DNA of 64,000 nucleotides, taken from positions 1 to 64,000 of IMG/VR virus record IMGVR_UViG_3300042691_019444. One strand, written 5' to 3'. Under the pieces are notes generated by a model that saw only the letters and a list, made by a program, of their open reading frames with translations, was not told the DNA's origin and did not search any database. Positions within the stretch are counted from its first letter, which is position 1; each line of letters opens with the position of its first letter. Made by a program: the position numbers and the translations under genes. This DNA is from a virus. This document shows positions 4,013 through 52,679 of the stretch, in pieces.

Positions 4013-4036
4013 CACCGCAACACGTGTTGCGGTGTT
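4011..4036. repeat. Dispersed palindrome, extended to 26 bp
   Basis: AACACCGCAACACGTGTTGCGGTGTT. Confidence 0.95.
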
Positions 4037-4045
4037 GGGCAAATG

Positions 4046-4053
4046 CGGCATAA
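4046..4053 (+). promoter_or_regulatory. CGGCATAA putative phage promoter element
   Basis: Recurs upstream of many SD/start codons. Confidence 0.6.
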
Positions 4054-4079
4054 GCGGTTCACACAATAGGAGGCTGAAA

Positions 4080-5342: not shown

Positions 5343-5363
5343 CCGGCTTACTGCATCATCGAC

Positions 5364-5402
5364 AAAGGTCATCTATCTACCCGATAGGTGACCTTTTTTT
5401 TT
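5364..5402 (+). terminator. Rho-independent terminator
   Basis: GGTCATCTATC-TACCC-GATAGGTGACC followed by T9. Confidence 0.85.
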
Positions 5403-5409
5403 GTCTCAA

Positions 5410-5417
5410 CGGCATAA
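5410..5417 (+). promoter_or_regulatory. CGGCATAA putative phage promoter element before polB
   Basis: Between the terminator and SD GGAGG/ATG 5434. Confidence 0.6.
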
Positions 5418-5433
5418 CCCCCCGGAGGTTCTC

Positions 5434-10038: not shown

Positions 10039-10107
10039 TTGGCGCGTTGGTGAGTTGTAAATGCCCATCTCACGGCATAGTGAGGTGGGCATTGTTTTGT
10101 GGAGGTT

Positions 10108-11301
10108 ATGATGGGACGGAAACGTATTGTCGATGAAACTCCAATGGTGTTGGGTTACGAAGAGGAGGAATTTGGGGTTGAGTCGGTGGAGAGTCTGATA
10201 CCACCCCGTAATGAAGTGTTGGATGCGTTGAGGGGTGTGGCGGCAGACATAAATCGATGGGGGGCTGCTAAAGAGGTACTTACTAACGTGAGGGCCGTGA
10301 AGACGTGTTTCCCTCAATTCAATAAGGCCACCAAAGTAAACGGATTCCCAATCGAACGGTTCACATTGGTGCATGGGCCATCAGCGCACGGGAAGACGAC
10401 ATTCGCAATTGGGGTGGGAATGTCATTCCTGATGGGTAACCACTTCTATGCACATTGCGACGCTGAGAACACCACACCCGCAGACTACGTTGATAAGTTG
10501 ATGGGCTCGTATGCGGATCATCCAGCATTCCTTGCTATGCGCCCGCGTACGTACGAGCAAGCCATTGATGGTGTGAGGCAGTTCTGCGAAGTAATCCATA
10601 AGGCACGGGAAGAGGGCAAAATCCCTGCCGATACGTCTGGCGTCGTAGTGATGGATTCGATTCAGAAGCTCATGCCCCAACACTTACTGGATAAGATTCG
10701 GAAAGAAGGGGCTGATGGGTTGGGGGGTAGGGCGGGGCAGCTCAAAGCTGCAATGAATCAGGCGTGGCTGAACGACCTGATACCGATGCTGAACCAAACG
10801 GGGACCGCTGTACTTGCAATTGGTAGGGAAGCGCAAGACCCGAATGCAACTGAGATTGACCGCAAGTTCGGTAATGACTGGAAGCTAACGGGCGGCGTCG
10901 GATTGGTATACGACGCCTCCTTACTGGTGAGAGTCACGCGGTCATCTTGGGTATACGACAAACCCGGTGAGAACGGGGTAGTCATTGGGGAGAAGCACAA
11001 GTTGCGAGTCTGGAAGAGTAAGGTGGAGGCAAAAGACGCAAAGCATACCGAGTGCTTCTTTTATACGTCCAACGGTAAGGGTGGATATGCGGAAGGCTTT
11101 GATTTTCAACGCGACTACCTGGAGTTGGGAGTCGATTGCGGCGTAGTAACCAAGGCCGGAAGCTGGTTTTCGTTGGAGGATGATCGGTTAGGGCAAGGTG
11201 AACACAATGCCGTCTTGGCCTTACATCGGAATCCTAAGTTGTTTGAGAGGTTGAAGATGTTAGTTGATTCAACGTTGGAGAGTGAGGTAGGGGCATCATG
11301 A
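10108..11301 (+). CDS. recA: RecA/UvsX-like recombinase
   Basis: Walker A GPSAHGKT, DAENT, VVMDSI, GGVGLVYDASL, KSKV, KAGSWFS..RLGQG. Confidence 0.9.
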   Translation: MMGRKRIVDETPMVLGYEEEEFGVESVESLIPPRNEVLDALRGVAADINRWGAAKEVLTNVRAVKTCFPQFNKATKVNGFPIERFTLVHGPSAHGKTTFAIGVGMSFLMGNHFYAHCDAENTTPADYVDKLMGSYADHPAFLAMRPRTYEQAIDGVRQFCEVIHKAREEGKIPADTSGVVVMDSIQKLMPQHLLDKIRKEGADGLGGRAGQLKAAMNQAWLNDLIPMLNQTGTAVLAIGREAQDPNATEIDRKFGNDWKLTGGVGLVYDASLLVRVTRSSWVYDKPGENGVVIGEKHKLRVWKSKVEAKDAKHTECFFYTSNGKGGYAEGFDFQRDYLELGVDCGVVTKAGSWFSLEDDRLGQGEHNAVLALHRNPKLFERLKMLVDSTLESEVGAS

Positions 11302-12050
11302 ACATGAATATGAAGATGCTTGTCACCAGTGATTGGCATGCCGATGCAGTGACGAATGGGATTGAGCGGTACAATGAGATAGAGAGCATTGCGTTGGAGA
11401 TGGTGAAGACTGCAATCGAAGAACGTGTGAGTGTCTTCGTGTTTGCGGGGGACCTGTGCAATCCCGGATTAGGCGGTCGCACCATCATGGCAATCTCACT
11501 CGCAAGTAAGGTTGCCAATATGCTGGATGATGTAGGTATTAGGTCGATATGGTTGGCGGGTAATCATGATGTGGTTGATGTCGATTACCCTCTATCGTCA
11601 CTGATGCCCCTATGCACGCAAGGCAATTCCAATATCAATGTGGCGCAAGTGCCGATGGTCGTGGAGTTGGCACACGTCCCATTCAGGTTCTTATGTTTGC
11701 CGTATGTGTCAAAGTACCTAGGTGCGCGCATGTACGAGCATCATAATTATGTCGAGGCTCTGACTGCTGGGTTTAGTGCTCATGATTGGAAGTACACAAT
11801 AGTCGTCAGCCACATGACGGCATTGGACGTCACGGGGTTAGAGGTTGGGACGGAGAGCAATGAGTTTCGGTACGGAAAATCGTACAAGTTGAATCTGCCC
11901 TCTTACCTTGACAGGGGCGTAAGGTTGGTGATTCAAGGGCATTTCCATAAGCATCAACGGCATGGGGGGTTGTTTGTACCGGGGTCGTTAGTGCGGCTCG
12001 GGTTTGGGGAAGAGAAGCATCACCCCCACTACCACATTCTATCCATTTGA
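11298..12050 (+). CDS. Mre11/SbcD-like metallophosphoesterase nuclease
   Basis: SDWH, GDL, GNHD, SH, GHFH, PGSL motifs; near the Rad50-like gene. Confidence 0.85.
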   Translation: MNMNMKMLVTSDWHADAVTNGIERYNEIESIALEMVKTAIEERVSVFVFAGDLCNPGLGGRTIMAISLASKVANMLDDVGIRSIWLAGNHDVVDVDYPLSSLMPLCTQGNSNINVAQVPMVVELAHVPFRFLCLPYVSKYLGARMYEHHNYVEALTAGFSAHDWKYTIVVSHMTALDVTGLEVGTESNEFRYGKSYKLNLPSYLDRGVRLVIQGHFHKHQRHGGLFVPGSLVRLGFGEEKHHPHYHILSI

Positions 12051-12069
12051 CCGCAACACGTGTTGCGGT
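12050..12069. repeat. Dispersed palindrome
   Basis: Exact 20-mer overlapping the stop codon, followed by an SD. Confidence 0.95.
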
Positions 12070-12079
12070 GGAGGGCCCG

Positions 12080-12511
12080 ATGAGAAGACTAGTGTATGAG
12101 AAGCCTGCCGAGGGTTTCAGCGTCAAGAGCATACCCACTCAGACGTTAGGGTTCATCACGGTACGTGTCCCTTTCAAGCGTTTACCGGATGTGAAAGGTG
12201 TTCTGGTAAGACTGGAACCTAAAGAGGGGTGTTTGCCCGCCCAAATGGAAGAAGCTCTGACGATTGTTCGTAGTTGTGGACCTAAGTCGATTCAGGCAAT
12301 GGCCGTCAGAGTATTGGTTGCCACACCCGAGATGGAGGACACCGTTGATGAGTTGGTAGGTAATGCGGAGTTGCCAGATGAGACTTCGGTGAGGGCCGTA
12401 GTTGTGGAGATGGCTAAGGAGTCGGCCATTGCTGAGGAGCTGAAGGATTCCCTCGTCAATTACGTTTGCGAAGTATACGACCGAACGGAGGATTCCGATG
12501 TATATCGCTGA
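12080..12511 (+). CDS. Hypothetical protein, possibly a detached SbcD C-terminal region
   Basis: SD GGAGG; lies between the nuclease and the ATPase; acidic helical C-terminus. Confidence 0.5.
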   Translation: MRRLVYEKPAEGFSVKSIPTQTLGFITVRVPFKRLPDVKGVLVRLEPKEGCLPAQMEEALTIVRSCGPKSIQAMAVRVLVATPEMEDTVDELVGNAELPDETSVRAVVVEMAKESAIAEELKDSLVNYVCEVYDRTEDSDVYR

Positions 12512-14465
12512 GTTGGCATTGGAGAATTGGCTCCCATACGGCGGCACAACCGTGTTGAAGTTGGAACCTACCATCTATGCGATTGTTGCCGAAACCGAGG
12601 AGTATAAGGAGCGGAGTAATTGGGTGGGTAAGACTGCATTGTTTGAGGCTCCTGCGTTCGTGTTCTTTGGGGACCACCGTAAACGTACTGAAGATGAGTG
12701 GATTACCAATGGTGCCAAGAAGGGGTCAGTGTCGGTACTGCTGTCGAGTGGTGACAGACTGACGCGTAGCAGGGTTGTGGGTGAAGCAACCAAGTTCACG
12801 GTAGTTACAAGTGCAGGCAATCTCAAAGCAGGCAATGAAGCCGAGGAGTATGTTGCTAGGTTGTTGAAGATGAGTAAGGACGATTATTATTCAATGAGCC
12901 ATTACAGACAGGGGAAGTTGAGTGAGATCGTCACAATGGAGCCTGCCGCCAGGACGGAGTTGTTTTCTAAGTGGCTGAAGCTCAGTAGGTTGGTTGATGC
13001 GGAAGACTTGATTGCGAATGCGATTGTGGAGTTGAATGACGAACGCAGTAGGGCATTCGGTGTGATACGTGCAGGTTATGAGGCAATGAAACAAGCGCTG
13101 GATGACGTTGAACCAACGTCGGGGGAGCCAGTGGCATTGACTGAACCGGCAGCAATGGTTGAGTTTTGCAAAGTAGGACTCTCTAAGTTGGAGTATGCGG
13201 CGACGCAATTGCAGAAGCGGGTGAATGCGAAGAACGTACAGGTTCAGCAGTTGTTCACGCAAGCGAAGTCTGCGCGCGAATACGCCGTGAACCAAGCGAA
13301 TGCTGAGCATCGTAAGGCATATGCTGTTGAGATTGAAAAGCTGAGCAGTACGTTGCCGCCTAAACGCCCCGAGATCGATGCCAAAGTACAGGACCAATAT
13401 GAACAACGCTCTAATCAGATAGCGGTGCTCAATAGGGACCTAGCGTTGGCGCGGAGAGCCTGCAAGGGTGAGTTTGATGGTAAGTGTCCGGTGAATGGGT
13501 CTACGTGTCCCGTGCGGGACAAAATCAATGCAGCAAACGGTGAGGCCGTAACCCGCAGGGACCAACTCACGTCTAAGTGCGATGAGGCCATGCGTGTACG
13601 AGACAAGCTGGAAACAACCATCAATGAGATAAAGGTTCAGATTCGGTCTTACGATGAAGTGGTGACCCGCATAAGTACGCTGAAGAGTAAGGCTGAAGAG
13701 ATTCGGGTATCCAACATGAAGGCAGTCAATCCAGATGTGTTGTCGGCCTACAACGATGCCCGCAATGAATTGGAGAGCCTCAATATGGCACTCAAGGATG
13801 CGACGACCCATACCGAACAAGCTATGGCAATGGCATCCAAAATGACCGAAGCGATGGACGTTATTGCGAATTCCGATAAGGCTCTGAAGATCACACAAGC
13901 GGCCAGATACATCTTCAGCAAGCAAGGTGCTCAGCGTCGTATTGCGGAGCGGGTGATGCGGCGTATTGAGATGAGGGGTAATGAGACGTTGAGGGAGAAT
14001 GGGATTGAGCTTGCGTTCCATTTGGCGTGGTCTCGACTGGGGAAGGGGTTGGCTACGTATTGTCGGAGTTGTGGGGCGAGCTTCCCTAAGTCGGAACGTG
14101 TGAAGATGTGTAGTTGTGGCACTGCACGCGGACCGTTGGTTATCGATAAGAGTGAGGTGATTCTGAGCGATCAAAGCGGAGCCGCTAATGACATCGTTGG
14201 TGGAGTCATTCGGTTGGAGACTTCGGCCTGGTACAGAGAAACCAGGGGGTCGATGTGGAATGTGACGTTCATTGATGAACCGTATGGGGCGGTCGACCAA
14301 TACAATCGGCATGCATTTTCAAAGTTACTGCGAAGTATGCTGTCCAACAGATTGGGGATCGAACAGGCATTCGTTACGGCACACAACCCTGAGATGTTGA
14401 CTGAATTACCGGGGACCATTCGGTTGATTCGGAGAGGGAAGCTAACGCGAGCAGAGGTGGTGTGA
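12498..14465 (+). CDS. Rad50/SbcC-like ABC ATPase
   Basis: LENWLPY, SNWVGKT Walker A, RQG Q-loop, coiled coil with CPVNGSTCP hook, QSG signature, FIDEP Walker B, VTAH. Confidence 0.85.
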   Translation: MYIAELALENWLPYGGTTVLKLEPTIYAIVAETEEYKERSNWVGKTALFEAPAFVFFGDHRKRTEDEWITNGAKKGSVSVLLSSGDRLTRSRVVGEATKFTVVTSAGNLKAGNEAEEYVARLLKMSKDDYYSMSHYRQGKLSEIVTMEPAARTELFSKWLKLSRLVDAEDLIANAIVELNDERSRAFGVIRAGYEAMKQALDDVEPTSGEPVALTEPAAMVEFCKVGLSKLEYAATQLQKRVNAKNVQVQQLFTQAKSAREYAVNQANAEHRKAYAVEIEKLSSTLPPKRPEIDAKVQDQYEQRSNQIAVLNRDLALARRACKGEFDGKCPVNGSTCPVRDKINAANGEAVTRRDQLTSKCDEAMRVRDKLETTINEIKVQIRSYDEVVTRISTLKSKAEEIRVSNMKAVNPDVLSAYNDARNELESLNMALKDATTHTEQAMAMASKMTEAMDVIANSDKALKITQAARYIFSKQGAQRRIAERVMRRIEMRGNETLRENGIELAFHLAWSRLGKGLATYCRSCGASFPKSERVKMCSCGTARGPLVIDKSEVILSDQSGAANDIVGGVIRLETSAWYRETRGSMWNVTFIDEPYGAVDQYNRHAFSKLLRSMLSNRLGIEQAFVTAHNPEMLTELPGTIRLIRRGKLTRAEVV

Positions 14466-15004
14466 TGGCTAAGGGGCATTTGAAGGGGCCTAGAGGGGAA
14501 TTGGAAGTTGCTAAGATTGTGCAAGAATGGTGGAGAAATTACGAGCCTGAAGCCATATTCGTAAGAACACCCGGATCGGGCGGATGGCATGGTCGAAATC
14601 AACGCGGGGCTGCCATTAGGGCCGGACATAATGTGAGTGGGGACGTAACGACGTCTTCTACGTCTTTCCCGTTTTGCGTCGAAGTGAAGAGGGTAGAGGA
14701 CTTCGACATGGACAATTTGGTAGAGTGTAGTTGTGTACGGCCGAGCCCCGTTTGGAAATGGTGGTTACAGGTACAACGGGAAGCCGGTGAGGTTCAGAAG
14801 GAACCTATGTTGTGGTTTAGGCAGAACCGAAAGCCGTGGATGGTTATTGTGGCGCTTTCATATGCGCGCGAGAACATCACCGTATCCCCCGTTGTAACGT
14901 GGACGACCAGACAACTACTCAACATCAATTGCGGGGCATCCCCTGTGATGTATGCGGCTAAGGACTTGTTGCGGATGGACCCTCAGTTACTTGCAAGGGA
15001 TTAG
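14462..15004 (+). CDS. Holliday junction resolvase (Hjc-like PD-(D/E)XK)
   Basis: KGPRGELEVAK, RTPGSGG, GDV, VEVKR, PMLWFRQNR. Confidence 0.8.
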   Translation: MMAKGHLKGPRGELEVAKIVQEWWRNYEPEAIFVRTPGSGGWHGRNQRGAAIRAGHNVSGDVTTSSTSFPFCVEVKRVEDFDMDNLVECSCVRPSPVWKWWLQVQREAGEVQKEPMLWFRQNRKPWMVIVALSYARENITVSPVVTWTTRQLLNINCGASPVMYAAKDLLRMDPQLLARD

Positions 15005-19716: not shown

Positions 19717-20498
19717 TGATGAGCGGTCTTGGACAAATTGAAGCGCTAGGCAATCCCCCAGGCATCAACAACGAAGCTGTGCTGGGTCTCAATGGCGTTG
19801 CAAATAGTCTCTCATACATTGTTGCTGAGATAGAGAAGCACTTTCATACGGCTCAGCAGATTTACGGACTCACTGCCAATACGATGGCCCGTAAGTCGGT
19901 ATCACCAATCGTCATCACGGGTGGTAGTGATGCGTGGGGCACTGAGTTGGAGTTGCATAACGGAACTGTAATTGAGTCAGGTTCGGCAACTAAGAAGTTC
20001 GATATGAATCAACTATATGTGAACGCGGTAGGTACGGCTAACCGCATCACTATGTTGGAGTTCTATGCGAACACACATTCAGCAAACGTAGCCGCAACTA
20101 CTCAAGCGACCGGAGATACGGTTACGAAGAACGGACACGGGTTGGCTAACGGTACGAAGGTGATGCTGAACACCATCGTTACGTCGACTGGCATCAATGC
20201 CTATACGGTCTATTATGTGGTCAATCAGGCCACCAATACGTTCCAGTTGTCACTGACGCTCGGAGGGGCTGCGATCGATATTGGGACCGGAGACGGCACG
20301 TGCAATTATACGGTGTTGACTCAGACGCTTATCACGGAAACTGTGGTGAGTAAGTCGGCAGTCAATTCTGATGCTCTAGTGATTCCGATTCAGATGGCTC
20401 GCCAAACATGCAATACGCGTATCACGTGCAGGGGGTACGCGGGTGGGGGAACGAACGCCATTAGCTTCTTCGTTGGTCTCCATTCGTATGCAGCATGA
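19716..20498 (+). CDS. Putative virion protein with a tail-fibre-type beta module (HGL..G..V...YYV...TFQL)
   Basis: HGLANGTKVML...YYVVNQATNTFQLSLTLGGAAIDI. Confidence 0.6.
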   Translation: MMSGLGQIEALGNPPGINNEAVLGLNGVANSLSYIVAEIEKHFHTAQQIYGLTANTMARKSVSPIVITGGSDAWGTELELHNGTVIESGSATKKFDMNQLYVNAVGTANRITMLEFYANTHSANVAATTQATGDTVTKNGHGLANGTKVMLNTIVTSTGINAYTVYYVVNQATNTFQLSLTLGGAAIDIGTGDGTCNYTVLTQTLITETVVSKSAVNSDALVIPIQMARQTCNTRITCRGYAGGGTNAISFFVGLHSYAA

Positions 20499-20507
20499 GG
20501 TGATGTA

Positions 20508-41350: not shown

Positions 41351-41590
41351 ATGCGTACTTCAAAACAACTCAAGTCTGATGTGCGGTTCGCCAGGCGCAT
41401 TGCACAGCTCATTTCAGCACACCTATCTGATGATGAGTTTGCACGCTTGTTGGCTATGCTTGATGGGTCCGACCTTATCGAAGATGCCATTGAGAAGGTC
41501 GGGTTCTGGAGATGCCCGCACGTGTACGTGAGGGGCAATCGCAAAGCCGTAAAGCGAGAACCTGTGAAGGCAATGGGTAAGGAGGAGTGA
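41351..41590 (+). CDS. Hypothetical protein
   Basis: SD GGAGGT. Confidence 0.55.
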   Translation: MRTSKQLKSDVRFARRIAQLISAHLSDDEFARLLAMLDGSDLIEDAIEKVGFWRCPHVYVRGNRKAVKREPVKAMGKEE

Positions 41591-42102
41591 TGCTGAAGTA
41601 TGTAAATGATCCCACAATCATCGCATTCACCAGGGCCCGATTACCCTACGGATGGCTCGGTAACATGAGTGCCTATCCGGTCACCATCTTTGAGGTGTGT
41701 TGGCCTACCGCCGAACATGCATTCCAAGCCATGCGGGTGCATGAGAACTATTGGAATACGGTACGGGATGCTGCATCACCCATGACCGCTAAGATGCTAG
41801 TGAGGGGGATGATATCTAGGGGTGGTTACTTTATGGTGGTGGAACCCCGTACCGTGCGTGACATTGAGAACATGCGTACGGTGTTGATGCAGAAGGTGAT
41901 TCAGAATCCCAAGCTAGCAGTAGCGCTACTCCAGACCGGAGACAGCCTAATTGTTGAAGACGTTACTAAGCAGCCACATGACTTGTTCTGGGGCATGAAG
42001 TTGGTTGGAGACCATTGGGTGGGGGACAACATGCTTGGGTTATTGTGGATGGGGGTACGCGCTAGGCTACGAGGCATTATTCCTCAACAGGGGGTTCTAT
42101 GA
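41590..42102 (+). CDS. NADAR family protein (YbiA-like)
   Basis: GWLGNM, WPTAEHAFQA, QKVIQNPKL..LLQTGD..IVE, DLFWG, GDNMLGLLWMGVR. Confidence 0.9.
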   Translation: MLKYVNDPTIIAFTRARLPYGWLGNMSAYPVTIFEVCWPTAEHAFQAMRVHENYWNTVRDAASPMTAKMLVRGMISRGGYFMVVEPRTVRDIENMRTVLMQKVIQNPKLAVALLQTGDSLIVEDVTKQPHDLFWGMKLVGDHWVGDNMLGLLWMGVRARLRGIIPQQGVL

Positions 42103-42344: not shown

Positions 42345-42724
42345 AGCCTGTAGACCAGACAGTGTTTACGGTACCGGGAGGCAATTGCTTCTCAGCGTGT
42401 GTTGCGTCGTTGTTGCACCTAAGCATTGATGAGGTGCCGTACTTTATGGGGGATGAACCGCCTGATAAGCCCAATATGTGGTTCAGGCGGTTCTTGGATT
42501 GGTTGAAGCCTAAAGGGTTATGGGCGGTTACCATTGAGCTGGGTAATGGTTGGGTGCCATTCGGTGAATGCATCCTATCGGGCAAGTCTCCTAGGGGGGA
42601 CTTTCTACATAGTGTGGTGGCCGATGGTCTAACTATCATTCATGACCCACACCCATCCAGAGCCGGCATACTGACGCGGGAAGACGTAGTGGTGCTGATT
42701 CCTAGGATCATCTATAGGTTGTAA
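42341..42724 (+). CDS. Peptidase C39/papain-like fold protein
   Basis: Q..GNCFSACVASLL, HSVV, HDP. Confidence 0.55.
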   Translation: MKPVDQTVFTVPGGNCFSACVASLLHLSIDEVPYFMGDEPPDKPNMWFRRFLDWLKPKGLWAVTIELGNGWVPFGECILSGKSPRGDFLHSVVADGLTIIHDPHPSRAGILTREDVVVLIPRIIYRL

Positions 42725-43716
42725 TGACTCTGACGATCAGAGACCTCTACACGACATGTCCTAAGTGCGGAATGTACTTGGGTGCCTACGCAATGCGCGC
42801 ACGCGGGCAAGTGCGGCATAAGTGCCAACAACAATCGGAGGCTGATATGAGTAAGTACAGAGTCGAGACGTTTGGTCCATTTGAGATTAGCGAAACTGAT
42901 AACTTCGCAGAATTCACATCCAAAGACGGAGACGGCGTGGACATACCGTTGCAGAACGGGGTGGCGCGTGTGCGCGTTACAGTGCGCAAGCGTCCCGGAG
43001 AACCGTCTGAACCATTCGAGCACCAGATTGGACGCCTTGCTAAGTGCATCATGGCAGAGGTTGAGGGGGAGCCAAGTACGTCGGACGGTGCGGTTGATGT
43101 GGCAATCCGTCTCATCAAACACGCGTACGGGCATAGACCGCTAGACCTAGGTCCTACCATTGCGGTGGACTTCGACGGCGTAATCCATTCCTACGTTAGT
43201 GGTTGGAAGGGTGTGGATGGGATTCCGGATCCGCCCGTACCAGGGGCCATTGAATGGCTGAATGATGTGGTTACGGAATGCCGTGTTGTTATCCACACCA
43301 CAAGGGCCGAGAGTCCTAAAGGGGTGGCCGCCATTGTTGAGTGGTTGAAACGGAACGGCGCAACCCCACAACTCTACAACTCAACCATCACCAATAAGAA
43401 GGTACCGGCGGTCGTATACATTGACGACAGGGCATTCCGATTCACCGGTACATTCCCATCTATCGAGAAGCTGCTGATTGGAATGAAGCCCTGGTACAAG
43501 CAACCATCCTTTAGCGGACCCCACATAGGGACTCGCGGTAGGACGAGAAGTGAAGCGGCGCACGCTGCTATCGATATGATGGAACGAGAAGGGTTGTTGG
43601 ATGATTCCAAATGTGTTGAGTTGAAGTTTGGAACCGATACGGGGGACTATCGACACACATGTACGGTTGTGGATACCGTGGCTGAGCCCATGGACCTTAC
43701 CAAAATCCCCCTCTAA
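42724..43716 (+). CDS. HAD-superfamily phosphatase domain protein
   Basis: IAVDFDGVIHSY, HTTR, KVPAVVYIDDRA; likely start 42847 (SD GGAGG, CGGCATAA at 42814). Confidence 0.8.
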   Translation: MTLTIRDLYTTCPKCGMYLGAYAMRARGQVRHKCQQQSEADMSKYRVETFGPFEISETDNFAEFTSKDGDGVDIPLQNGVARVRVTVRKRPGEPSEPFEHQIGRLAKCIMAEVEGEPSTSDGAVDVAIRLIKHAYGHRPLDLGPTIAVDFDGVIHSYVSGWKGVDGIPDPPVPGAIEWLNDVVTECRVVIHTTRAESPKGVAAIVEWLKRNGATPQLYNSTITNKKVPAVVYIDDRAFRFTGTFPSIEKLLIGMKPWYKQPSFSGPHIGTRGRTRSEAAHAAIDMMEREGLLDDSKCVELKFGTDTGDYRHTCTVVDTVAEPMDLTKIPL

Positions 43717-45281: not shown

Positions 45282-45875
45282 ATGAGCCCCCCTAGGTGGT
45301 TGACTAAGTTCCCATATAGGGGTGTCGGCATATGTTCGTGGTGCGGTAAGGCCACCCCACCGAAACGACGATACTGGTGTTCAAAGGAATGTGTTGAAGA
45401 GTGGATGATCCGTAGCAATGCCACGAGCCTACGTAGGGCAACGTTCGAACGGGACAGGGGCGTGTGCGCATTGTGCGGGGTCGACACAGAGGCAGTACAC
45501 AACGAGCTAACCAAACTCTACTACGATGCCCTAGCGAGGCAAGTAGGGGCAGGAACGTATCATGCCAGTCATGCCCTAGCTAAGCGCATTCCCGACTCAG
45601 ACCCCTACAGGGTTCGGATGCGTGAGTTGGGTAGTCCTAAGTGGATGAAGCGCTCTCTGTGGGAGGCCGATCATATTCAGACGGTTGTGGAGGGTGGCGG
45701 GGGTTGTGGGTTGGAGAACATTCGCACGTTGTGTTGGAAGTGTCATGCTGCGGAGACGGCTAAGCTACATGCCCGTCTGAAGGAGTTTCGTAGGCATTGC
45801 CCTCCTGATGTGGAGGCGTGGTTGGATGAACTAGGTACCGCAACACGTGTTGCGGCAGATAAGGAGGCCCCATGA
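45282..45875 (+). CDS. HNH endonuclease
   Basis: CSWC..WCSKEC; RDRGVCALCG; WEADHI..GGG..LENIRTLCWKCH. Confidence 0.85.
   Translation: MSPPRWLTKFPYRGVGICSWCGKATPPKRRYWCSKECVEEWMIRSNATSLRRATFERDRGVCALCGVDTEAVHNELTKLYYDALARQVGAGTYHASHALAKRIPDSDPYRVRMRELGSPKWMKRSLWEADHIQTVVEGGGGCGLENIRTLCWKCHAAETAKLHARLKEFRRHCPPDVEAWLDELGTATRVAADKEAP
45837..45856. repeat. Dispersed palindrome, in frame in the HNH C-terminus
   Basis: Exact core; encodes TATRVAA. Confidence 0.95.
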
Positions 45876-46237
45876 AGTGCAGTATGATCGTTCCGAGTGA
45901 AGTAGTGGCCGAACACTTACACGCTCGCGCGTGTGCGTGGGTGAAACGTCTATTGGAGAAGTGTGAGGTACAGGACGGGAAGGTCGTTATACCAGAGGAG
46001 CTAGTTAGGTCACTAAGCAATGCCGGGAAGGATTACCAACAACTAAACCCCATAGACCGATCCATTCTGCGGTATGAGGCTATGATGCTGATGCTGGCAA
46101 TCACAAGGCCAGAGTGGCACGGGCGTAAGTTGGTACGGTGTGGGGAGTGCAGTAGGCGCGTCAATGGTGTATGTGAAAACCATGGGTCCGAATGTGATGC
46201 GGACTGGGGTTGTGTGGAAGGATTGGAGGCACAATGA
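45872..46237 (+). CDS. Hypothetical protein
   Basis: SD AAGGAGG; Cys-rich C-terminus. Confidence 0.55.
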   Translation: MKCSMIVPSEVVAEHLHARACAWVKRLLEKCEVQDGKVVIPEELVRSLSNAGKDYQQLNPIDRSILRYEAMMLMLAITRPEWHGRKLVRCGECSRRVNGVCENHGSECDADWGCVEGLEAQ

Positions 46238-46968
46238 AGAAGGCAAAGTCTGATAAGCAAATCGTCGGGACCGTTGAGCATGTTGGCATCGATACGTTGA
46301 AGCCCAACAAGTGGAACCCAAATAAGATGACTACCCGCAAGATGGATAGTCTGAAACAAGGACTGATGGAGGAGGGTTGGCTATCGTCTCAGACGTTGCT
46401 GGTGTGGGGTACCGATAAGGACGGAGTTGCCCACAACGTCATTATTGATGGTGAGCATAGGTGGCGGGCAGCGAAGGCTTGTGGGTTCAAACAGGCTCCT
46501 ATTGTGGTGCTGAACAACATCACTGAGATGGAGGCAAAACGGCTAACCATCAAGCTCAATCAACGACGTGGTGAGTTTGACAGTACGATGCTTGGAGACC
46601 TGTTGAAAGAGGTTGCACGCGAGACGGATGCAGCGCTGTCGCTGGGCTTTGAGGATGACTATGTGAGCAAGCTCATTGCATCTACGGATAAGACCGTAAG
46701 TGCGGCAGTATCGGCAGCAACTCCTCCCCCTGCACCGCCACCCCCTCCTGCTCCACCGCCACCTCCTCCAACTAAGGTGGACGGCATCAAGGGCGTACAA
46801 CCAAACACCCGCATTCCGGTCGTCTTCTACATGGATTCAGATGAGGATGCGACTTTGGTGCGTGAAGTGTTTGCGCACGCTCAACGGCAATTCGAGTCTG
46901 ACAGTAAGTTGCTGTTGAGTGCCGCCAAGTACATCAAGGCCAATCCGACCGCTATTCCAAAGGGGTAA
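46234..46968 (+). CDS. ParB/Srx N-terminal domain protein
   Basis: LKPNKWNPN, IIDGEHRWRAA, LNQRRGE. Confidence 0.85.
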   Translation: MKKAKSDKQIVGTVEHVGIDTLKPNKWNPNKMTTRKMDSLKQGLMEEGWLSSQTLLVWGTDKDGVAHNVIIDGEHRWRAAKACGFKQAPIVVLNNITEMEAKRLTIKLNQRRGEFDSTMLGDLLKEVARETDAALSLGFEDDYVSKLIASTDKTVSAAVSAATPPPAPPPPPAPPPPPPTKVDGIKGVQPNTRIPVVFYMDSDEDATLVREVFAHAQRQFESDSKLLLSAAKYIKANPTAIPKG

Positions 46969-48305
46969 TGATGAAACGCGTAATGCCGGACGGCTCCAGT
47001 ATCGACATGACCTATAAGTCCCCCCGCGTTAGTGGGGAGATTTATGAATGTGGGTTGCCCCTTACGTTTGACCAGTACAGCTATTGCGAATTCAGGTGCG
47101 CATACTGTTTCGCATTCAGTACTAAGTCGGTGAATATGGGGGGCAGTAAGGAGAAGAGTCTAAGTCGATACGACTACCCGCTTACGTGCGTTGATGTGGA
47201 ACGGGTAAAGTCCCTGTTCCTGAAGCGCACAACCAGTGAGAAGGGTGTTGTGCCGATGATACAGAACCTCATGGCAAAGCGGGCCCCCTTCCATTGGGGA
47301 GGGCTATGTGATCCGTTCGACGGCCATGAGGAGAGGTATCAGGTAGGGTTGGAGCTGCTCCGGTTCTTGCGCGCCATGAACTACCCGACGGTGTTGTGTA
47401 CTAAGGGTGTGTTGATGACCCGAGACCCATGGCGTAGCGTGCTGATGCAGAGTAACTTTCGGTTCCAGCAAAGCATCATTACTCAGGACCCTGTGAAGGT
47501 GGCAGTAGTGGATGCAGGGTGCCCTGATGCGGAAGCTAGGTTTGAGGCTATGCGCGTACTTGCGCGCGAGATGGGCCTCATTACGACGTTGCGGTTACGG
47601 CCCATCATACCGGGCATCGTTACGCCTAAGGACTGCGTGGAACTTATCAGGCGTGCTCACGCGTGTGGGGCAGTAGGTGTGAGTACGGAGTTCTTCTGCG
47701 TTGAGGCACGGGGGGAACATAATCGAGAGCGGTATGCGCCGATGAATGAGGTGGCGGGCATTGACATCTTTGACTTCTACCGTAAGAACTCACCAGGCCA
47801 GAGCGGATACTTGCGCCTAAACCCTGAGGTGAAGAATCCGTACTTCGACGCCATGGAGTCGACCGCTAAGTCGTTGGGGATGCGGTTTGCCATCAGTGAC
47901 TTCCATGGCAAGGAGCGGAATAACTGCACTACATGCTGTGCGGTTTACTGGGATGATGAGACCCAATTGGGAGGCAATGCTGAAGGGCCCTTTATCAACT
48001 ACGGTACACTCACGCGCGGCATCCAATTGGCATCCCGTACGGGATTCGTGTCGTTTGGGGATGTGGCTGAATCGCTCGATTGGGCCGAGCATATTGTGGA
48101 TAGTAACTTTCAGGGGTACATGTGCTCGAACCTGGAGCGTAGCCGCAACCGCAATAAGACGTTGAAGGACGCCCTACAGGGGGAATGGAATGACCCCAAT
48201 AACAGCAAGTCCCCTCACCGCTACACGTACGGCCAACTGAAGCCCATACGGGTGAATGATGCCGGGGATGTGGTGTATCAGTGGGTAGGTAGGAAACCAA
48301 CCTAG
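46968..48305 (+). CDS. Radical SAM protein (SplB/spore photoproduct lyase-like clade)
   Basis: CEFRCAYC, GGLCDPF, TKG, RLRPIIPG. Confidence 0.85.
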   Translation: MMKRVMPDGSSIDMTYKSPRVSGEIYECGLPLTFDQYSYCEFRCAYCFAFSTKSVNMGGSKEKSLSRYDYPLTCVDVERVKSLFLKRTTSEKGVVPMIQNLMAKRAPFHWGGLCDPFDGHEERYQVGLELLRFLRAMNYPTVLCTKGVLMTRDPWRSVLMQSNFRFQQSIITQDPVKVAVVDAGCPDAEARFEAMRVLAREMGLITTLRLRPIIPGIVTPKDCVELIRRAHACGAVGVSTEFFCVEARGEHNRERYAPMNEVAGIDIFDFYRKNSPGQSGYLRLNPEVKNPYFDAMESTAKSLGMRFAISDFHGKERNNCTTCCAVYWDDETQLGGNAEGPFINYGTLTRGIQLASRTGFVSFGDVAESLDWAEHIVDSNFQGYMCSNLERSRNRNKTLKDALQGEWNDPNNSKSPHRYTYGQLKPIRVNDAGDVVYQWVGRKPT

Positions 48306-48325
48306 ACCGCAACACGTGTTGCGGT
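48306..48325. repeat. Dispersed palindrome
   Basis: Exact 20-mer between the radical SAM and glycosyltransferase genes. Confidence 0.95.
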
Positions 48326-48335
48326 GGAGTGGCAG

Positions 48336-49337
48336 ATGAGCATTATCAACCTGTTCTTTCTGGTACCTCCGTCGCAGCTTGGCGGTTGTACGTCGTTCAC
48401 CCTGCATCTGTACCATGCGCTTATCAACCTAGGGCACACCCCTAGGTTGTGCCGCATTACGGACACTGACAAAATCAAGGCCAGTAAGTTTCCGTATGGA
48501 CTTGAGATATGGAATGTTCCGCTTGAGTACGCATTGAACTTAGTTGGCAATGAGCCTGCCCTAATCACGTACTGCTTCTGGAAGAAGTATGCTGTGCATG
48601 CCGAACCGCTGATAAGGGCCGGAGTACCAATGGTGGTGCATGACCCCGCCGAGTTTCATTCGGATGAGTTGGAGTTGTTCAAACGGTTGCGGTATCGCCC
48701 AATAGTTATACGGGACCGCAACGTGAGGGGACTAAAGGCGTTAGGTGTGGAGTCTACGTACATTCCACACCCGTACGCCACATCTCCTACTGTGCCGATG
48801 CCTAAGGTCTACAGAGCCTTATGCTTGGCAAGGGTGGACTTTAGGAAACGCACTCACTGGATAGTGACCGCCAACAAGGCGTTGAGCGAATCGAAGCAAT
48901 GCCACCTATACGGGGAGGTGAATCGTATTTACGAATATCACCAACTACGCAAGGAACATCCTGATTGGAAGCAGTGGTATCACGGGCAATTCCCCGACAG
49001 GTTGGGGGCTGCGGTGGAGTTGTTTGGTGGGGCTGAGTATGCTGTGGACCTAACTCACATTCAGGGAGACGGGGGTGGCACGCAGTACACATTCTTTGAG
49101 GCGTGGAATGCCGGCATCCCGTTGGTACTGAACAGGGCATGGGAAACCGGGGTAACCGATGAGGTTAGGGACGGAGATAGTTGTGTGATGGTAAACAATG
49201 CCGATGAGTTGGTTGAGGTATTGAATACCAATCCTAAGAACTTCGCTGGAATAGTTGAGGGGGGCACACGCATAATGCACGCACACGGCAATGACGTTGC
49301 GATGCTGTATGCAGAACAAGCCATTAGGAGGCCATAA
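48336..49337 (+). CDS. GT-B fold glycosyltransferase
   Basis: GGCTSFTLHL, VHDP, ARVDFRK, DGGGTQYTFFEA. Confidence 0.75.
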   Translation: MSIINLFFLVPPSQLGGCTSFTLHLYHALINLGHTPRLCRITDTDKIKASKFPYGLEIWNVPLEYALNLVGNEPALITYCFWKKYAVHAEPLIRAGVPMVVHDPAEFHSDELELFKRLRYRPIVIRDRNVRGLKALGVESTYIPHPYATSPTVPMPKVYRALCLARVDFRKRTHWIVTANKALSESKQCHLYGEVNRIYEYHQLRKEHPDWKQWYHGQFPDRLGAAVELFGGAEYAVDLTHIQGDGGGTQYTFFEAWNAGIPLVLNRAWETGVTDEVRDGDSCVMVNNADELVEVLNTNPKNFAGIVEGGTRIMHAHGNDVAMLYAEQAIRRP

Positions 49338-50107
49338 TGCTGATCGATATCGGAATTGGTAAGAAGGTGTTTGTGGGGGTTGTCAGTCATGCTCGCCCGG
49401 ACAATGTTGCTAAGATGAGAGAGCTAGTTGGCGACGCAACGTGGTTCGTTGGAATTGGAGAGAGTAAGGCATACAAGGCAGCGGGGGCGGTTCATGTGGT
49501 GGAGAGTGGTCCCTTGTGCCGTAGTCGTAATGCCATCATCGACAATGCGGGCGCGAAGGCTGCTGATTATTGTGTGGAGTTGAGTGACGATCTGACCAAA
49601 GTACAGATTGCAGTATCAACACCTAAGAAGCTAGCGGCTCAAGACTCCGACTTTCAAACCGTAACCAGAATGGTGATTGAAGGGATGCTGGCGGTTGGGG
49701 CTAAGTTGGGCGGGGCTGCCCCTACTTCCAATCCGTTCTATTCAAATGTGGATGCCCCAATTCATAAGTCCTCATTCATCGTTGGGGACTTCATCGTAAT
49801 CGATACGTCGTGCGGGCTTAGGTTCTCCGAAGAAATGACCCTCAAGGAAGACTACGACTATACGATGCAGCACATTTACACGTTCGGGTGTGTTGCCCGT
49901 AGGGATGATGTGTTGATGACATTCCTACATCGTAAGAACAAGGGGGGTGCCGTAGAGGTGAGAACGCCTCAGTTGGAGCAGGATAACATCGCGTATCTGA
50001 AGACGCGTTGGCCTGACTGCATTGTTGATAACCCGAGACGCCCCAATGAGATTCTGTTGAAGCTCCCCAAGTATCTCAATCAGGGGCGGGCATCGGTGTC
50101 GAAATGA
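49337..50107 (+). CDS. GT-A fold glycosyltransferase, GREB1/TET-associated (TAGT)-like
   Basis: SHAR, SRNAI, LSDD, KEDYDYTMQH, KGG, LKTRWP. Confidence 0.75.
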   Translation: MLIDIGIGKKVFVGVVSHARPDNVAKMRELVGDATWFVGIGESKAYKAAGAVHVVESGPLCRSRNAIIDNAGAKAADYCVELSDDLTKVQIAVSTPKKLAAQDSDFQTVTRMVIEGMLAVGAKLGGAAPTSNPFYSNVDAPIHKSSFIVGDFIVIDTSCGLRFSEEMTLKEDYDYTMQHIYTFGCVARRDDVLMTFLHRKNKGGAVEVRTPQLEQDNIAYLKTRWPDCIVDNPRRPNEILLKLPKYLNQGRASVSK

Positions 50108-50787
50108 AGGGGTTAGTGGTATCGGCTAAAGGCGCTGAGGAACGGGACCTAATTGAATACGATGGAGTATTGGTTAGGAGGGATTGGGGGCCCGACATAG
50201 GTGTGTTGAAGGAATGGGCTCCAGTTTACCGGTGCTTGGAGTCGAGAATACCAGGGCACCGCGTGATGGATATAGGTGGCAATATAGGCATGTTCAGTAC
50301 TAAGGCATTGAAGTTAGGGGCTGAACATGTTGTGGCGTTTGAGCCAGAACCAGGGGCATTCAGTGTGTTGAGTGCCAATCTGATGGGGAAGAATGCGATT
50401 GCCTATAACGTGGCAGTAGGGGCAACCAATGGGACGGTCAGGTTGAGTGTATCGCCTAGCGGTAATGCCACGTCAGCAACCACTATGGTGCATGTGAATA
50501 GGCGGCAATCGATCGAGGTACCCAAAGTTTCATTCCTTGAGATGGTTGAACAGTACAGGCCGACGTTTCTCAAGGTGGATTGTGAGGGGGCGGAACTTGA
50601 GTTTTTGGATGGTTATCGGATGCCCGCTTGCGTGAAGGTAGTGACTGCCGAGCTACATCGGGAATTTGCTGGTTGGGAGTCATTGTGTCAGCGGGTGATT
50701 GGGTCCTTCAGTGAGTGGACGGCAATAAAGAAGCCATTGTCGTATTCGTTCCACAGGTGTTGGCTCATAAACTACGAGAGACCATGA
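50104..50787 (+). CDS. FkbM family SAM-dependent methyltransferase
   Basis: DIGGNIG, AFEPE, LKVDCEGAE, ELH. Confidence 0.9.
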   Translation: MKGLVVSAKGAEERDLIEYDGVLVRRDWGPDIGVLKEWAPVYRCLESRIPGHRVMDIGGNIGMFSTKALKLGAEHVVAFEPEPGAFSVLSANLMGKNAIAYNVAVGATNGTVRLSVSPSGNATSATTMVHVNRRQSIEVPKVSFLEMVEQYRPTFLKVDCEGAELEFLDGYRMPACVKVVTAELHREFAGWESLCQRVIGSFSEWTAIKKPLSYSFHRCWLINYERP

Positions 50788-51710
50788 TTTACCAAACCAA
50801 TCAGCCGTGGACTGTGCAGGTCGAACTAGTTGAGGGATGCAATAGGTTGTGCGCGTTCTGTGGCATAAACGCTATACGGACACGACCAGGTGATTACAAG
50901 TACATGACCGTTGAGACGGCAACCAAAGTAGCGATTGAGCTGGGGGCAATCGCTCCTAAGTGCAAGATTCATTTCGCAATGCATGGTGAGCCATTACAGC
51001 ATCCACAATTCCATTCGATGGTCTCATTGTTCCGCACAATCCTACCTGAAGTTGAGATGATGGTAGTCACGAATGGGCGTGTGATTATGAACGACCTACA
51101 GGGAGGGCTGAATCGGATATTCGAGGCTGGGATCGATATGGTGATGCTCGATACGTACGAGCCTGAGCGGGGGCGCCTACGCGCGGGTGTGGAGATACTG
51201 CGAGGCATTCTGGTCTCAGACTATTATGGTGATGTGGTGAAGGGTAATGCCCCGAACCCGTATATGAATCATCACCGTAAGGTGCGTGGATACTTGTGCG
51301 TGATGGATGATATTGGGATTCGTAATGGTGAGCACCCTTCACGGAAACTACACAACCATTCCGGTTCAAACCCGTTAGGAACTAAGGTCCAGTCTCCACT
51401 TCAGAAGACATGCACTAAACCGTTCCGTGAGATGAGTGTGAATTGGAATGGGGATGTGCGGTTGTGTTGCGAAGACTGGACTGGTGCCTATACGTGCGGC
51501 AATTTGAACGAGAGGTCTGCTGCCGATATTTGGTACGGCCCTGAATTCGAATCCGCGCGTACAATGCTTCAGAACAAGCGGCGTGATTTCGGAGCCTGTA
51601 AGGTATGTGATGCTAGTAGTGGGATGAGATGTGGATTGCTGCCGAAATACCCGTCAGTCAGTCCTGAAGTTGAGAGCATTGTTAGGAACACTGAGAAGGA
51701 GGCAAAATGA
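50784..51710 (+). CDS. Radical SAM protein with SPASM/twitch domain
   Basis: CNRLCAFC, GEPLQHP, TNG, CTKPF..WNGDVRLCC..CKVC. Confidence 0.9.
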   Translation: MIYQTNQPWTVQVELVEGCNRLCAFCGINAIRTRPGDYKYMTVETATKVAIELGAIAPKCKIHFAMHGEPLQHPQFHSMVSLFRTILPEVEMMVVTNGRVIMNDLQGGLNRIFEAGIDMVMLDTYEPERGRLRAGVEILRGILVSDYYGDVVKGNAPNPYMNHHRKVRGYLCVMDDIGIRNGEHPSRKLHNHSGSNPLGTKVQSPLQKTCTKPFREMSVNWNGDVRLCCEDWTGAYTCGNLNERSAADIWYGPEFESARTMLQNKRRDFGACKVCDASSGMRCGLLPKYPSVSPEVESIVRNTEKEAK

Positions 51711-52444
51711 AACGAAGACTGCAAAGCACCGCAACACGTGTTGCGGTCAAACCCGGTACGGTGCACCCGGTTGAGTACGTTCCCTATAAGGACCTAAAGA
51801 AGTCCGATTACAACCCTCGCAAGATGCCAAAGGCAAAGCTGGAGCGACTAGCTACGAACATTGCATTGTTCGGGTTCGTTGAGAACGTAGTTGTACGGAA
51901 GGAGACGGGGGAGATTATTGGTGGGCATCAGCGCATTGCTGCGCTTGAGTTGTTGGCGTCGGGTAAGTTTACGCCCAAGAATGCTGAAGGTAAGGAGATT
52001 GAATTCACACCCATCGTCAAGGTGCCAGTCATATACGTTGAGGGGTTGTCGGACTTTGACGTAAAGAATCTCAATCTCAGTCTGAACAGCATCAGTGGTG
52101 AGTGGGATTCCGATAAGCTGGGTACGCTTATCAATCAGATGGTCAGTGAGGTGGAGACCGCAATGGACAACATTGCGAAGGATGCACTTGCATATCTGTC
52201 GCCCAGCGGGTTGTCCACCGATGAGCTGAATGCAATCATCAACAAGGAATCTGAGGACGGGTTGGCGCCTGAACGTACAACCGGTGTCCCCAAGCTAAAC
52301 CTTGAGTTTACGTCGAAGGAACTTAGGGATGCATTCAAGGCGTTCGTTGGTGAGGAGAAGCAAGACGGGATTCCGAGCGGGGACCTACTTGCTAAGCGGT
52401 TGGGAATTGAGGTTGTGAAGAAGCGGAAGTCGAAGCGTACCTAA
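51707..52444 (+). CDS. ParB/Srx N-terminal domain protein (second copy)
   Basis: LKKSDYNPRKM, FGFVENVVV, IIGGHQRIAA, LNSISGEWD. Confidence 0.85.
   Translation: MKRRLQSTATRVAVKPGTVHPVEYVPYKDLKKSDYNPRKMPKAKLERLATNIALFGFVENVVVRKETGEIIGGHQRIAALELLASGKFTPKNAEGKEIEFTPIVKVPVIYVEGLSDFDVKNLNLSLNSISGEWDSDKLGTLINQMVSEVETAMDNIAKDALAYLSPSGLSTDELNAIINKESEDGLAPERTTGVPKLNLEFTSKELRDAFKAFVGEEKQDGIPSGDLLAKRLGIEVVKKRKSKRT
51728..51747. repeat. Dispersed palindrome, in frame in the ParB-like N-terminus
   Basis: Exact 20-mer; encodes TATRVAV. Confidence 0.95.
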
Positions 52445-52635: not shown

Positions 52636-52679
52636 ACCGCAACACGTGTTGCGGCATAACGCACGTGGAGGTTGTGATG
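52636..52679 (+). promoter_or_regulatory. 44-bp palindrome + CGGCATAA + SD + ATG leader cassette
   Basis: 42/44 identical to 29695-29738. Confidence 0.85.

Follow-up and report, generated by a model that had tools for sequence, protein, structure and literature searches.

The window analyzed here is the first 64 kb of the IMG/VR virus record IMGVR_UViG_3300042691_019444, which totals 92,970 bp and is complete (direct terminal repeats, CheckV 100%). Between positions 46234 and 52444 it carries a plus-strand cassette of seven genes that encode, in order, a protein with a ParB N-terminal domain (ParB-N; ParB1), a radical S-adenosylmethionine (SAM) enzyme that resembles spore photoproduct lyase (SPL) in fold (rSAM1), a GT-B glycosyltransferase (GT), a GT-A glycosyltransferase of the TAGT (TET-associated glycosyltransferase) clade, an FkbM methyltransferase, a second radical SAM enzyme (rSAM2) and a second ParB-N protein (ParB2). 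Our main subject is rSAM1, which stands where an orthologous cassette has a TET/JBP-type dioxygenase gene and which may provide an oxygen-independent route to 5-hydroxymethyluracil (5hmU) in DNA. A preliminary description of this DNA, made from the letters alone, had recognized the same run of seven genes, and every one of them is confirmed at its place, all on the plus strand. The cassette and two copies of a repeated palindrome that accompany it are laid out as follows.

46234..46968, plus strand: ParB1, with ParB-N (nucleotide-binding domain), GxxRxxA, a poly-proline linker and a short C-terminal domain (Pfam ParB_N 1.2e-9; PHROG ParB families)
46968..48305, plus strand: rSAM1, SPL-like radical SAM protein of 445 aa (CxxxCxxC at residues 40-47; AlphaFold2 (AF2) model; SPL fold match)
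48306..48325, no strand: 20-bp palindrome copy at the rSAM1/GT-B junction (palindrome scan)
48324..49337, plus strand: GT-B fold glycosyltransferase (Pfam Glyco_trans_1_2 1.2e-5, 25.7 bits)
49337..50107, plus strand: TAGT-clade GT-A glycosyltransferase with DxD and KEDYD motifs (Pfam TAGT PF20691 3.1e-5; phrog_842 3e-9)
50104..50787, plus strand: FkbM-family SAM methyltransferase (TIGR01444 96.1 bits; Pfam Methyltransf_21 5.9e-13)
50784..51710, plus strand: rSAM2, BtrN-like twitch/SPASM radical SAM protein (Pfam Radical_SAM and SPASM; BtrN fold match)
51707..52444, plus strand: ParB2, the second ParB-N protein and last cassette gene (Pfam ParB_N 4.5e-4; phrog_620 1.4e-25)
52636..52655, no strand: palindrome copy in a 220-base non-coding stretch at the cassette end (palindrome scan)

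The cassette genes join through overlaps of one to four bases, an arrangement of translational coupling. The sole exception is a gap of about 18-30 bases between rSAM1 and the GT-B gene, which is filled by the 20-bp palindrome copy. A scan of the cassette for promoters and terminators gave fewer matches than shuffled sequences did. The arrangement is not a product of chance, because syntenic cassettes occur at other viral loci (L164, L165-L168 and L086 in our numbering).

A radical SAM gene at the position of a TET dioxygenase

The closest relatives of the window TAGT protein (36-65% identical) belong to ParB-TAGT-X modules in which X is Tet_JBP (Pfam 1.5e-26 and 3.1e-22 for two representatives). 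Among 80 loci found with the window TAGT, a TET gene lies nearby in 72 and rSAM1 in four. The closest cassette, L164, encodes in order a ParB (42-46% identical to ParB1), a Tet_JBP protein (81 bits), a GT-B (60%), a TAGT (65%) and an rSAM2 (57%). The window ParB1, GT-B, TAGT and rSAM2 thus have orthologues 42-65% identical in a TET cassette with the same gene order, in which TET takes the position of rSAM1; the FkbM and second ParB genes are not in L164.

In a tree of 107 TAGT-like proteins, the window TAGT and the L164 TAGT are sisters (support 100). The clade that holds them (support 99) has 53 rows, comprising 46 proteins adjacent to TET, five adjacent to neither enzyme, one adjacent to both and the window protein itself, which is its sole member with only rSAM1 as neighbor. 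Because the window TAGT is nested among TET-adjacent TAGTs, the locus records a recent non-orthologous displacement of the dioxygenase by rSAM1. The preliminary description had proposed asking whether this radical SAM clade and TET/JBP exclude one another next to the same glycosyltransferases, and they nearly do: 75 of 154 TAGT-bearing loci have rSAM1 only and 69 have TET only, with both in three and neither in seven. The window is an unusually clean natural experiment, in that one cassette is known with either TET or rSAM1.

Phage enzymes of clade C1 of the 5mYOX family are post-replicative thymine dioxygenases, and one subclass needs a ParB-like protein for activity on duplex DNA (O'Toole et al., PNAS 2026; PMC13229309). 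Such ParB-like proteins have nucleotide-binding and dimerization domains and no DNA-binding domain, and the ParB/5mYOX pairs show linkage to glycosyltransferases, kinases and amino-acid:DNA transferases, with a C5-methyltransferase in 6% of the pathways; radical SAM enzymes go unmentioned in that work (PMC13229309). The window shares with ParB-dependent 5mYOX clusters a ParB-N gene directly 5' of the (here putative) base-oxidizing gene, a GT-A/TAGT gene with tailoring genes, a location ahead of packaging and morphogenesis genes, and the lack of a C5-methyltransferase. It differs in having no Tet_JBP in the genome, an SPL-like radical SAM gene in the TET slot, and an additional ParB and an FkbM gene.

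We called and clustered ORFs (open reading frames) in 80 viral rSAM1 loci. Of these, 70 have a ParB-N gene no more than 3 kb from rSAM1 and 50 have a TAGT-like GT-A gene at that distance, and the module is often directly 5' of the small terminase, large terminase and portal genes. An amino-acid:DNA transferase (PF18724) occurs in 12 loci, and P-loop kinases recur alongside; both kinds of enzyme act in thymidine hypermodification and require 5-hydroxymethyluracil in DNA (Lee et al., NAR 2021; PMC8989533). Other recurrent neighbors are SAM-synthetase-like, cytidylyltransferase, GT-B and rSAM2-like proteins. The proteins with a SAM synthetase N-terminal domain (268 aa, shorter than MetK) adjoin rSAM1 at L082:3996-4802 and eight other loci (cluster 15), and cytidylyltransferase-like proteins do so at L007:6761-7201 (cluster 30); these may supply SAM and activated sugar for the pathway. 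A protein of about 357 aa that has no Pfam family lies between ParB and TAGT at L021:5711-6784 and 10 other loci (cluster 12).

Some relatives of rSAM1 are fused to the enzymes that elsewhere are encoded next to it. TAGT and rSAM1 form a single ORF in L058 (N-terminal TAGT, 33.4 bits), and the reverse order, rSAM1-TAGT, occurs in L049 (TAGT 76 bits). That the two enzymes are fused in either order argues strongly for their acting on one substrate in consecutive steps. Two further proteins join rSAM1, in first position, to FkbM (L085 and P0015).

The cassette is also mobile. A related phage with replication genes 30-45% identical to those of the window (L086, compared with window positions 8785-15004 and 46210-52444) has the order ParB-rSAM1-rSAM2-GT-B-(GT?)-ParB at L086:9034-15978, where (GT?) is a questionable glycosyltransferase. 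There the cassette lies directly 3' of a homologue of the window gene at 14462-15004, whereas in the window it lies at 46 kb. Given this difference in genomic site, the cassette moves as a unit.

Fold and family of rSAM1

The window rSAM1 has no match to any Pfam model, that for Radical_SAM included, although the latter does score on its relatives. The NCBIfam models that reach it are those of the Rv2578c/PA0069 radical SAM proteins (the COG1533 'SplB-like' group), at 8.6e-12 and 40-45 bits against cut-offs of 360-430. The family counts at least 249 proteins, was found on at least 471 viral contigs and is almost wholly viral, with the nearest homologues 57-64% identical. Among 137 distinct members, the cluster motif CxxxCxxC is kept in 99-100% and three further cysteines, C28, C323 and C324, in 97-100%. 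The latter may form a site for one-electron oxidation.

The AF2 model of rSAM1 (pLDDT, the predicted local distance difference test score, 89) aligns to many radical SAM structures with Z scores of 13-19. SPL is the nearest solved fold (Z 19.1, root-mean-square deviation (rmsd) 3.2 Å over 271 aligned residues), and the next family, SuiB, follows about 3 Z units lower at 15.9; the best Foldseek match of the model is 4fhg (E 6.8e-7). By its cluster motif and the partial TIM-barrel core of the model, rSAM1 belongs to the radical SAM superfamily. The term 'SplB-like' used in the preliminary description is correct as regards fold and superfamily. The protein nevertheless lies outside SPL proper, because it has no sequence-level match to the SPL model or to SPL sequences in the PDB; the family profile finds nothing among PDB sequences at E <= 1. 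Although SplB (PDB 4fhc and others) is the nearest fold, the two proteins are only 12-13% identical, and rSAM1 differs from SplB in a C-terminal region of about 130 extra residues, in its viral distribution and in its fusions and links to glycosyltransferases. SPL moreover repairs a lesion and installs nothing.

The characterized relative is gp53 of Pseudomonas phage M6, an SPL-like radical SAM enzyme that isomerizes N-alpha-glycinylthymidine in DNA and that Lee et al. term the first radical SAM enzyme to install a DNA modification (PMC8989533). Our proposal thus has a context, in that one radical SAM enzyme of the SPL-like type has already been shown to act on modified DNA (PMC8989533). A profile comparison of rSAM1 with gp53 (hhalign) gave a probability of 96.2% and an E value of 2.4e-9, at 24% identity over 233 columns. 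The two are homologous, share CxxxCxxC and a DPF motif, and are both encoded among phage thymidine hypermodification genes; gp53 lacks the C28, C323 and C324 conserved in the rSAM1 family. The M6 genome also encodes a dUMP hydroxymethylase, a 5-HMU DNA kinase, an amino-acid:DNA transferase and a pyridoxal-phosphate decarboxylase, none of which was found in the window genome by a Pfam search of all ORFs.

No member of the rSAM1 family was found among 50,697 GenBank phage records, so that the family has no cultured example in that set. In the GenBank phage search, megablast with the cassette and tblastn with protein P0001 gave no match, and tblastn with P0025 gave one weak match. A metagenome scan with a single protein as query likewise gave none; the distant relatives came from a scan with an alignment. 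A literature search, which was not exhaustive, turned up no publication connecting an SPL-like radical SAM enzyme with TAGT or with base activation.

Source of the hydroxymethyl acceptor and competing readings

The known routes to a hydroxymethylpyrimidine are pre-replicative thymidylate synthase homologues and post-replicative iron/2-oxoglutarate (Fe/2OG) dioxygenases, which need oxygen. Likewise, dUMP hydroxymethylase and TET_JBP are the two sources of 5-hydroxymethyldeoxyuridine (5hmdU) named by Lee et al. (PMC8989533). The preliminary description had seen no gene for TET/JBP, a thymidylate synthase-like protein or a C5-methyltransferase in the window and had proposed a search of the rest of the genome; that search found no TET or hydroxymethylase, and the statement holds for all 92,970 bp. 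Tet_JBP is absent from the complete genome, and a custom profile of 58 phage TETs, run with all filters off against the six-frame translation, reached a best E value of 2.2. Thymidylat_synt (by six-frame search), ThyX and C5-methyltransferase were also not found in this genome.

The same picture extends to related phages. Among 40 genomes with rSAM1, of which 25 reach a completeness of at least 90%, Thymidylat_synt was detected in none, in a search whose control was positive in 10 of 14, and Tet_JBP was detected in one. Two complete genomes (G005 and G036) encode a kinase, an amino-acid:DNA transferase and rSAM1, yet neither Thymidylat_synt nor Tet_JBP. C5-methyltransferase occurs in one of 42 related genomes of the TET and rSAM1 kinds together, and because these enzymes are nearly absent, thymine rather than 5-methylcytosine is the likely target. 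Anaerobic ribonucleotide reductase (NrdD), tried as a marker of oxic or anoxic habitat, was found in none of 50 genomes of either type.

We favor, with a probability of roughly 0.55, the reading that the cassette directs a post-replicative hypermodification of thymidine, in which the thymine methyl group is converted to 5hmU by a ParB-assisted, oxygen-independent step and is then glycosylated and further tailored on the sugar. The narrower claim, that rSAM1 itself is an oxygen-independent, ParB-assisted hydroxylase of the thymine C5 methyl group on duplex DNA and hence a radical SAM analogue of JBP/TET, we hold at about even odds. The preliminary description had supposed that the SplB-like enzyme supplies an oxygen-independent base activation in place of a TET or hydroxymethylase. 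Comparative sequence evidence argues for that idea, namely the TET slot of L164, the fusions, the near exclusivity of the two genes, and the 39 of 40 genomes that have neither a thymidylate synthase homologue nor TET.

The substrate, product, oxygen independence and order of steps that we infer are as follows. ParB1, perhaps with ParB2, would open duplex phage DNA to rSAM1, as for the ParB-dependent thymine dioxygenases. rSAM1 would cleave SAM, and the 5'-deoxyadenosyl radical would take a hydrogen from the C5 methyl group of thymine. SPL chemistry proceeds via a thymine-methyl allylic radical in DNA, and the allylic thymine radical formed here would be the same as that intermediate. It would then lose one electron, possibly via the C28/C323/C324 site, and addition of water would give 5-hydroxymethyluracil without oxygen. 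The TAGT-clade GT-A would glycosylate the hydroxymethyl group to a base-J-like product, GT-B would attach a second sugar, rSAM2 would oxidize a sugar hydroxyl and FkbM would methylate a hydroxyl. The predicted end product is an undescribed di-glycosylated, methylated hydroxymethyluracil that would shield the phage DNA from host nucleases.

The proposed logic resembles that of base J in kinetoplastids, in which the thymine hydroxylases JBP1/2 produce 5hmU and JGT then O-glucosylates it (background in PMC13229309). Thymine would in both cases pass through 5hmU to O-glycosylation by a GT-A of the TAGT/JGT type. In the window, however, the proposed hydroxylase is a radical SAM enzyme and not an Fe/2OG dioxygenase, and the predicted pathway goes further, with a second sugar, a methylation and an oxidation of the sugar by radical chemistry.

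Several points weigh against the reading we favor. We know of no radical SAM enzyme that hydroxylates a DNA base, and the only characterized relative, gp53, is a downstream isomerase and not an initiator. Four records have rSAM1 together with an intact-looking TET (L165, L167 and L168, at locus coordinates of about 2529-7759, and G012, the record of L023); in these phages TET and rSAM1 each follow a ParB of their own, in the order ParB-TET-ParB-rSAM1-TAGT-rSAM2, and TET keeps HxD, H and R. The presence of TET and rSAM1 in one phage means that the two enzymes may not be redundant. Pairs of oxygen-dependent and oxygen-independent isoenzymes are common in biology, and the dual phages could hold either an aerobic/anaerobic pair or two non-redundant steps. 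The 154 loci were ascertained via rSAM1 or TAGT, which keeps the contingency table from being an unbiased census; ORF calling was naive, and many of the loci are truncated. Among distant metagenome relatives, ParB was detected near rSAM1 in only five of 28 loci. Finally, since about half of the window ORFs match no family, a very divergent oxidase is conceivable.

Three of these points, the rearrangement of glycinyl-thymidine by the homologue gp53 (PMC8989533), the intact-looking TET genes beside rSAM1 and the many unannotated ORFs, favor a different role, in which rSAM1 tailors a base or sugar that is already modified and the acceptor comes from an unrecognized phage or host enzyme. We consider this unlikely, if the most serious of the alternatives. 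It leaves 39 of the 40 genomes, including the complete ones with a kinase and an amino-acid:DNA transferase, without a known source of 5hmU, and it does not explain why rSAM1 stands at the exact TET slot of an orthologous cassette. The sensitive TET profile found nothing in the six-frame window genome, and gp53 does not have the family-specific cysteines.

It is more doubtful still that rSAM1 starts a different DNA chemistry, on cytosine or a purine or through a thymine-methyl radical coupled to a group other than hydroxyl, so that the acceptor is not 5hmU. Radical SAM enzymes have a broad repertoire, covalent catalysis could make use of the conserved Cys-Cys pair, and the rSAM1-FkbM fusions hint at a methylation closely tied to rSAM1. 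Against this, the window TAGT branches within TET-adjacent TAGTs, which use hydroxymethylpyrimidines as acceptors; the kinases and amino-acid:DNA transferases found as neighbors in relatives need a 5-hydroxymethyl group (PMC8989533); and the window genome has no C5-methyltransferase.

A target other than DNA, such as virion proteins (an alternative already raised in the preliminary description), a cell-envelope glycan or free nucleotides, seems to us improbable. GT-B, FkbM and BtrN-like enzymes are characteristic of pathways to glycans and natural products, HAD-like and MazG-like genes occur elsewhere in the genome, and a survey of phage DNA glycosyltransferases set aside 65% of its GT contigs, which had no 5mYOX or ThyS neighbor (bioRxiv 10.1101/2023.12.21.572611). 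Yet the cassette encodes two ParB-N proteins, an SPL-like enzyme related to enzymes that act on DNA and a TAGT-clade GT, is orthologous to a cassette with a DNA thymine dioxygenase, and has no nucleotide-sugar or peptide-carrier genes. That rSAM1 is a true SPL-type repair enzyme and a chance neighbor of glycosylation genes is hardly credible: SPL is its nearest fold and sources label its relatives 'DNA repair photolyase', but there is no PDB sequence-profile match, the NCBIfam scores are far under every cut-off, and the family is almost wholly viral, fused to TAGT or FkbM and tightly linked to ParB and GT genes.

If ParB-assisted hydroxylation by rSAM1 is correct, the enzyme would be a third phage source of 5hmU, next to thymidylate synthase homologues and 5mYOX dioxygenases, and the first radical SAM enzyme that initiates modification of a DNA base, adding C-H hydroxylation of a DNA base to the radical SAM reactions. 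It would explain how phages of anoxic habitats make bases derived from hydroxymethylpyrimidine, and would account for part of the GT contigs set aside in surveys for want of a base-modifying neighbor. An oxygen-independent 5hmU writer could also find uses in epigenetic sequencing chemistry and in nuclease-resistant DNA.

Putative tailoring enzymes, ParB proteins and further features of the genome

The GT-B protein is a borderline Pfam match (Glyco_trans_1_2, 25.7 bits against a cut-off of 25), and its L164 orthologue matches likewise; its more likely start is ATG 48336, with GGAG just 5'. The window TAGT scores 24.4 bits, below the PF20691 gathering cut-off of 27.5, while its sister in L164, 65% identical, scores 36.8 bits. 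The PHROG family it matches, phrog_842, is beta-glucosyl-HMC alpha-glucosyltransferase. We predict that this TAGT-clade GT-A glycosylates 5-hydroxymethyluracil in DNA. The assignment of the methyltransferase to FkbM is well above threshold (TIGR01444, 96.1 bits against 37.7; PF05050, 49.7 against 22.7). Hydroxyl groups are the targets of FkbM methylation, and the window enzyme is predicted to O-methylate the sugar or the hydroxymethyl group.

The start of rSAM2 is likelier ATG 50784 than GTG 50715. In a search against PDB sequences it matches BtrN at 3.2e-11, and its AF2 model (pLDDT 82), in the VIA comparison, aligns with BtrN at Z 24.6 and rmsd 2.5 Å over 235 of 246 residues (23% identity), the next match being at 14.2. 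A CNRLCAFC motif is present, and C210, C228, C229, C272 and C275 are invariant; orthologues in L164, L086 and L165 are 57, 49 and 47% identical, respectively. Judged on this model, rSAM2 is a BtrN-like twitch dehydrogenase and not a generic SPASM maturase. It shares CxxxCxxC and the C-terminal cysteines with BtrN, the 2-deoxy-scyllo-inosamine dehydrogenase (PDB 4m7t), and differs in context, a phage DNA glycosylation cassette as opposed to aminoglycoside biosynthesis. The reaction of BtrN is the oxidation of a secondary alcohol on an aminocyclitol, which makes a sugar hydroxyl the likeliest target for oxidation by rSAM2. By this analogy we predict that rSAM2 oxidizes a secondary alcohol of a sugar, presumably one that is linked to DNA or to a nucleotide. 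The cassette retains rSAM2 whether it has TET or rSAM1, which makes rSAM2 a tailoring step and not the initiator.

ParB_N is the sole Pfam domain of both ParB1 and ParB2, and both have GxxRxxA. In a tree of ParB proteins, ParB1 groups with ParBs adjacent to rSAM1 (L085 and L086) and with the TET-adjacent ParB of L164, and the partner switches between TET and rSAM1 at least eight times. ParB2 is most similar to the L165 ParB that precedes rSAM1 and to the distal ParB of L086. By analogy with the ParB-like activators of thymine dioxygenases (O'Toole et al., 2026; PMC13229309), the window ParB proteins are best read as predicted activators of the oxidizing enzyme, with ParB1 a predicted activator or partner of rSAM1.

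A perfect palindrome of 18-20 bp with the core CCGCAACACGTGTTGCGG occurs in 23 copies in the window (1339-63031), where none would be expected, and its 14-mer core occurs in 30 copies genome-wide, about one every 2.8 kb. Besides the two copies listed above, one at 51728-51747 is written into the N-terminal codons of ParB2. The CACGTG at the center of the palindrome is also seen in parS-type sites. Dispersed long repeated palindromes were found in none of the 80 related rSAM1 loci; the array is thus peculiar to this genome rather than a general partner of rSAM1/ParB modules.

Nearly all genes of the window lie on the plus strand, and no tRNA genes were found anywhere in it. A Pfam search of all ORFs identified UvrD, a family B polymerase, RecA, an SbcCD-like pair, a PDDEXK nuclease, DnaG and DnaB, together with MazG-like, DUF4942, NADAR, HAD-like and HNH proteins and the portal, MuF and baseplate J proteins. 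In a greedy gene call, no ORF of at least 60 aa falls within a stretch of 0.8 kb (19717-20507).

The translational coupling of the cassette extends 5' of ParB1 through overlaps of four bases to an ORF of 121 aa (45872-46237) and an HNH endonuclease gene (45282-45875); this pair (window 45282-46237) is not kept in related cassettes. Further genes, at 41587-42102, at 42724-43716 and within 20508-41590, encode a NADAR domain protein, a 330-aa HAD/NT5C-like protein (with the PHROG label phosphoheptose isomerase), a MazG-like PRA-PH protein, a DUF1937 protein (nucleoside deoxyribosyltransferase-like) and the DUF4942 protein, which we take to be methyltransferase-like. These genes may bear on the supply of nucleotides or sugars.

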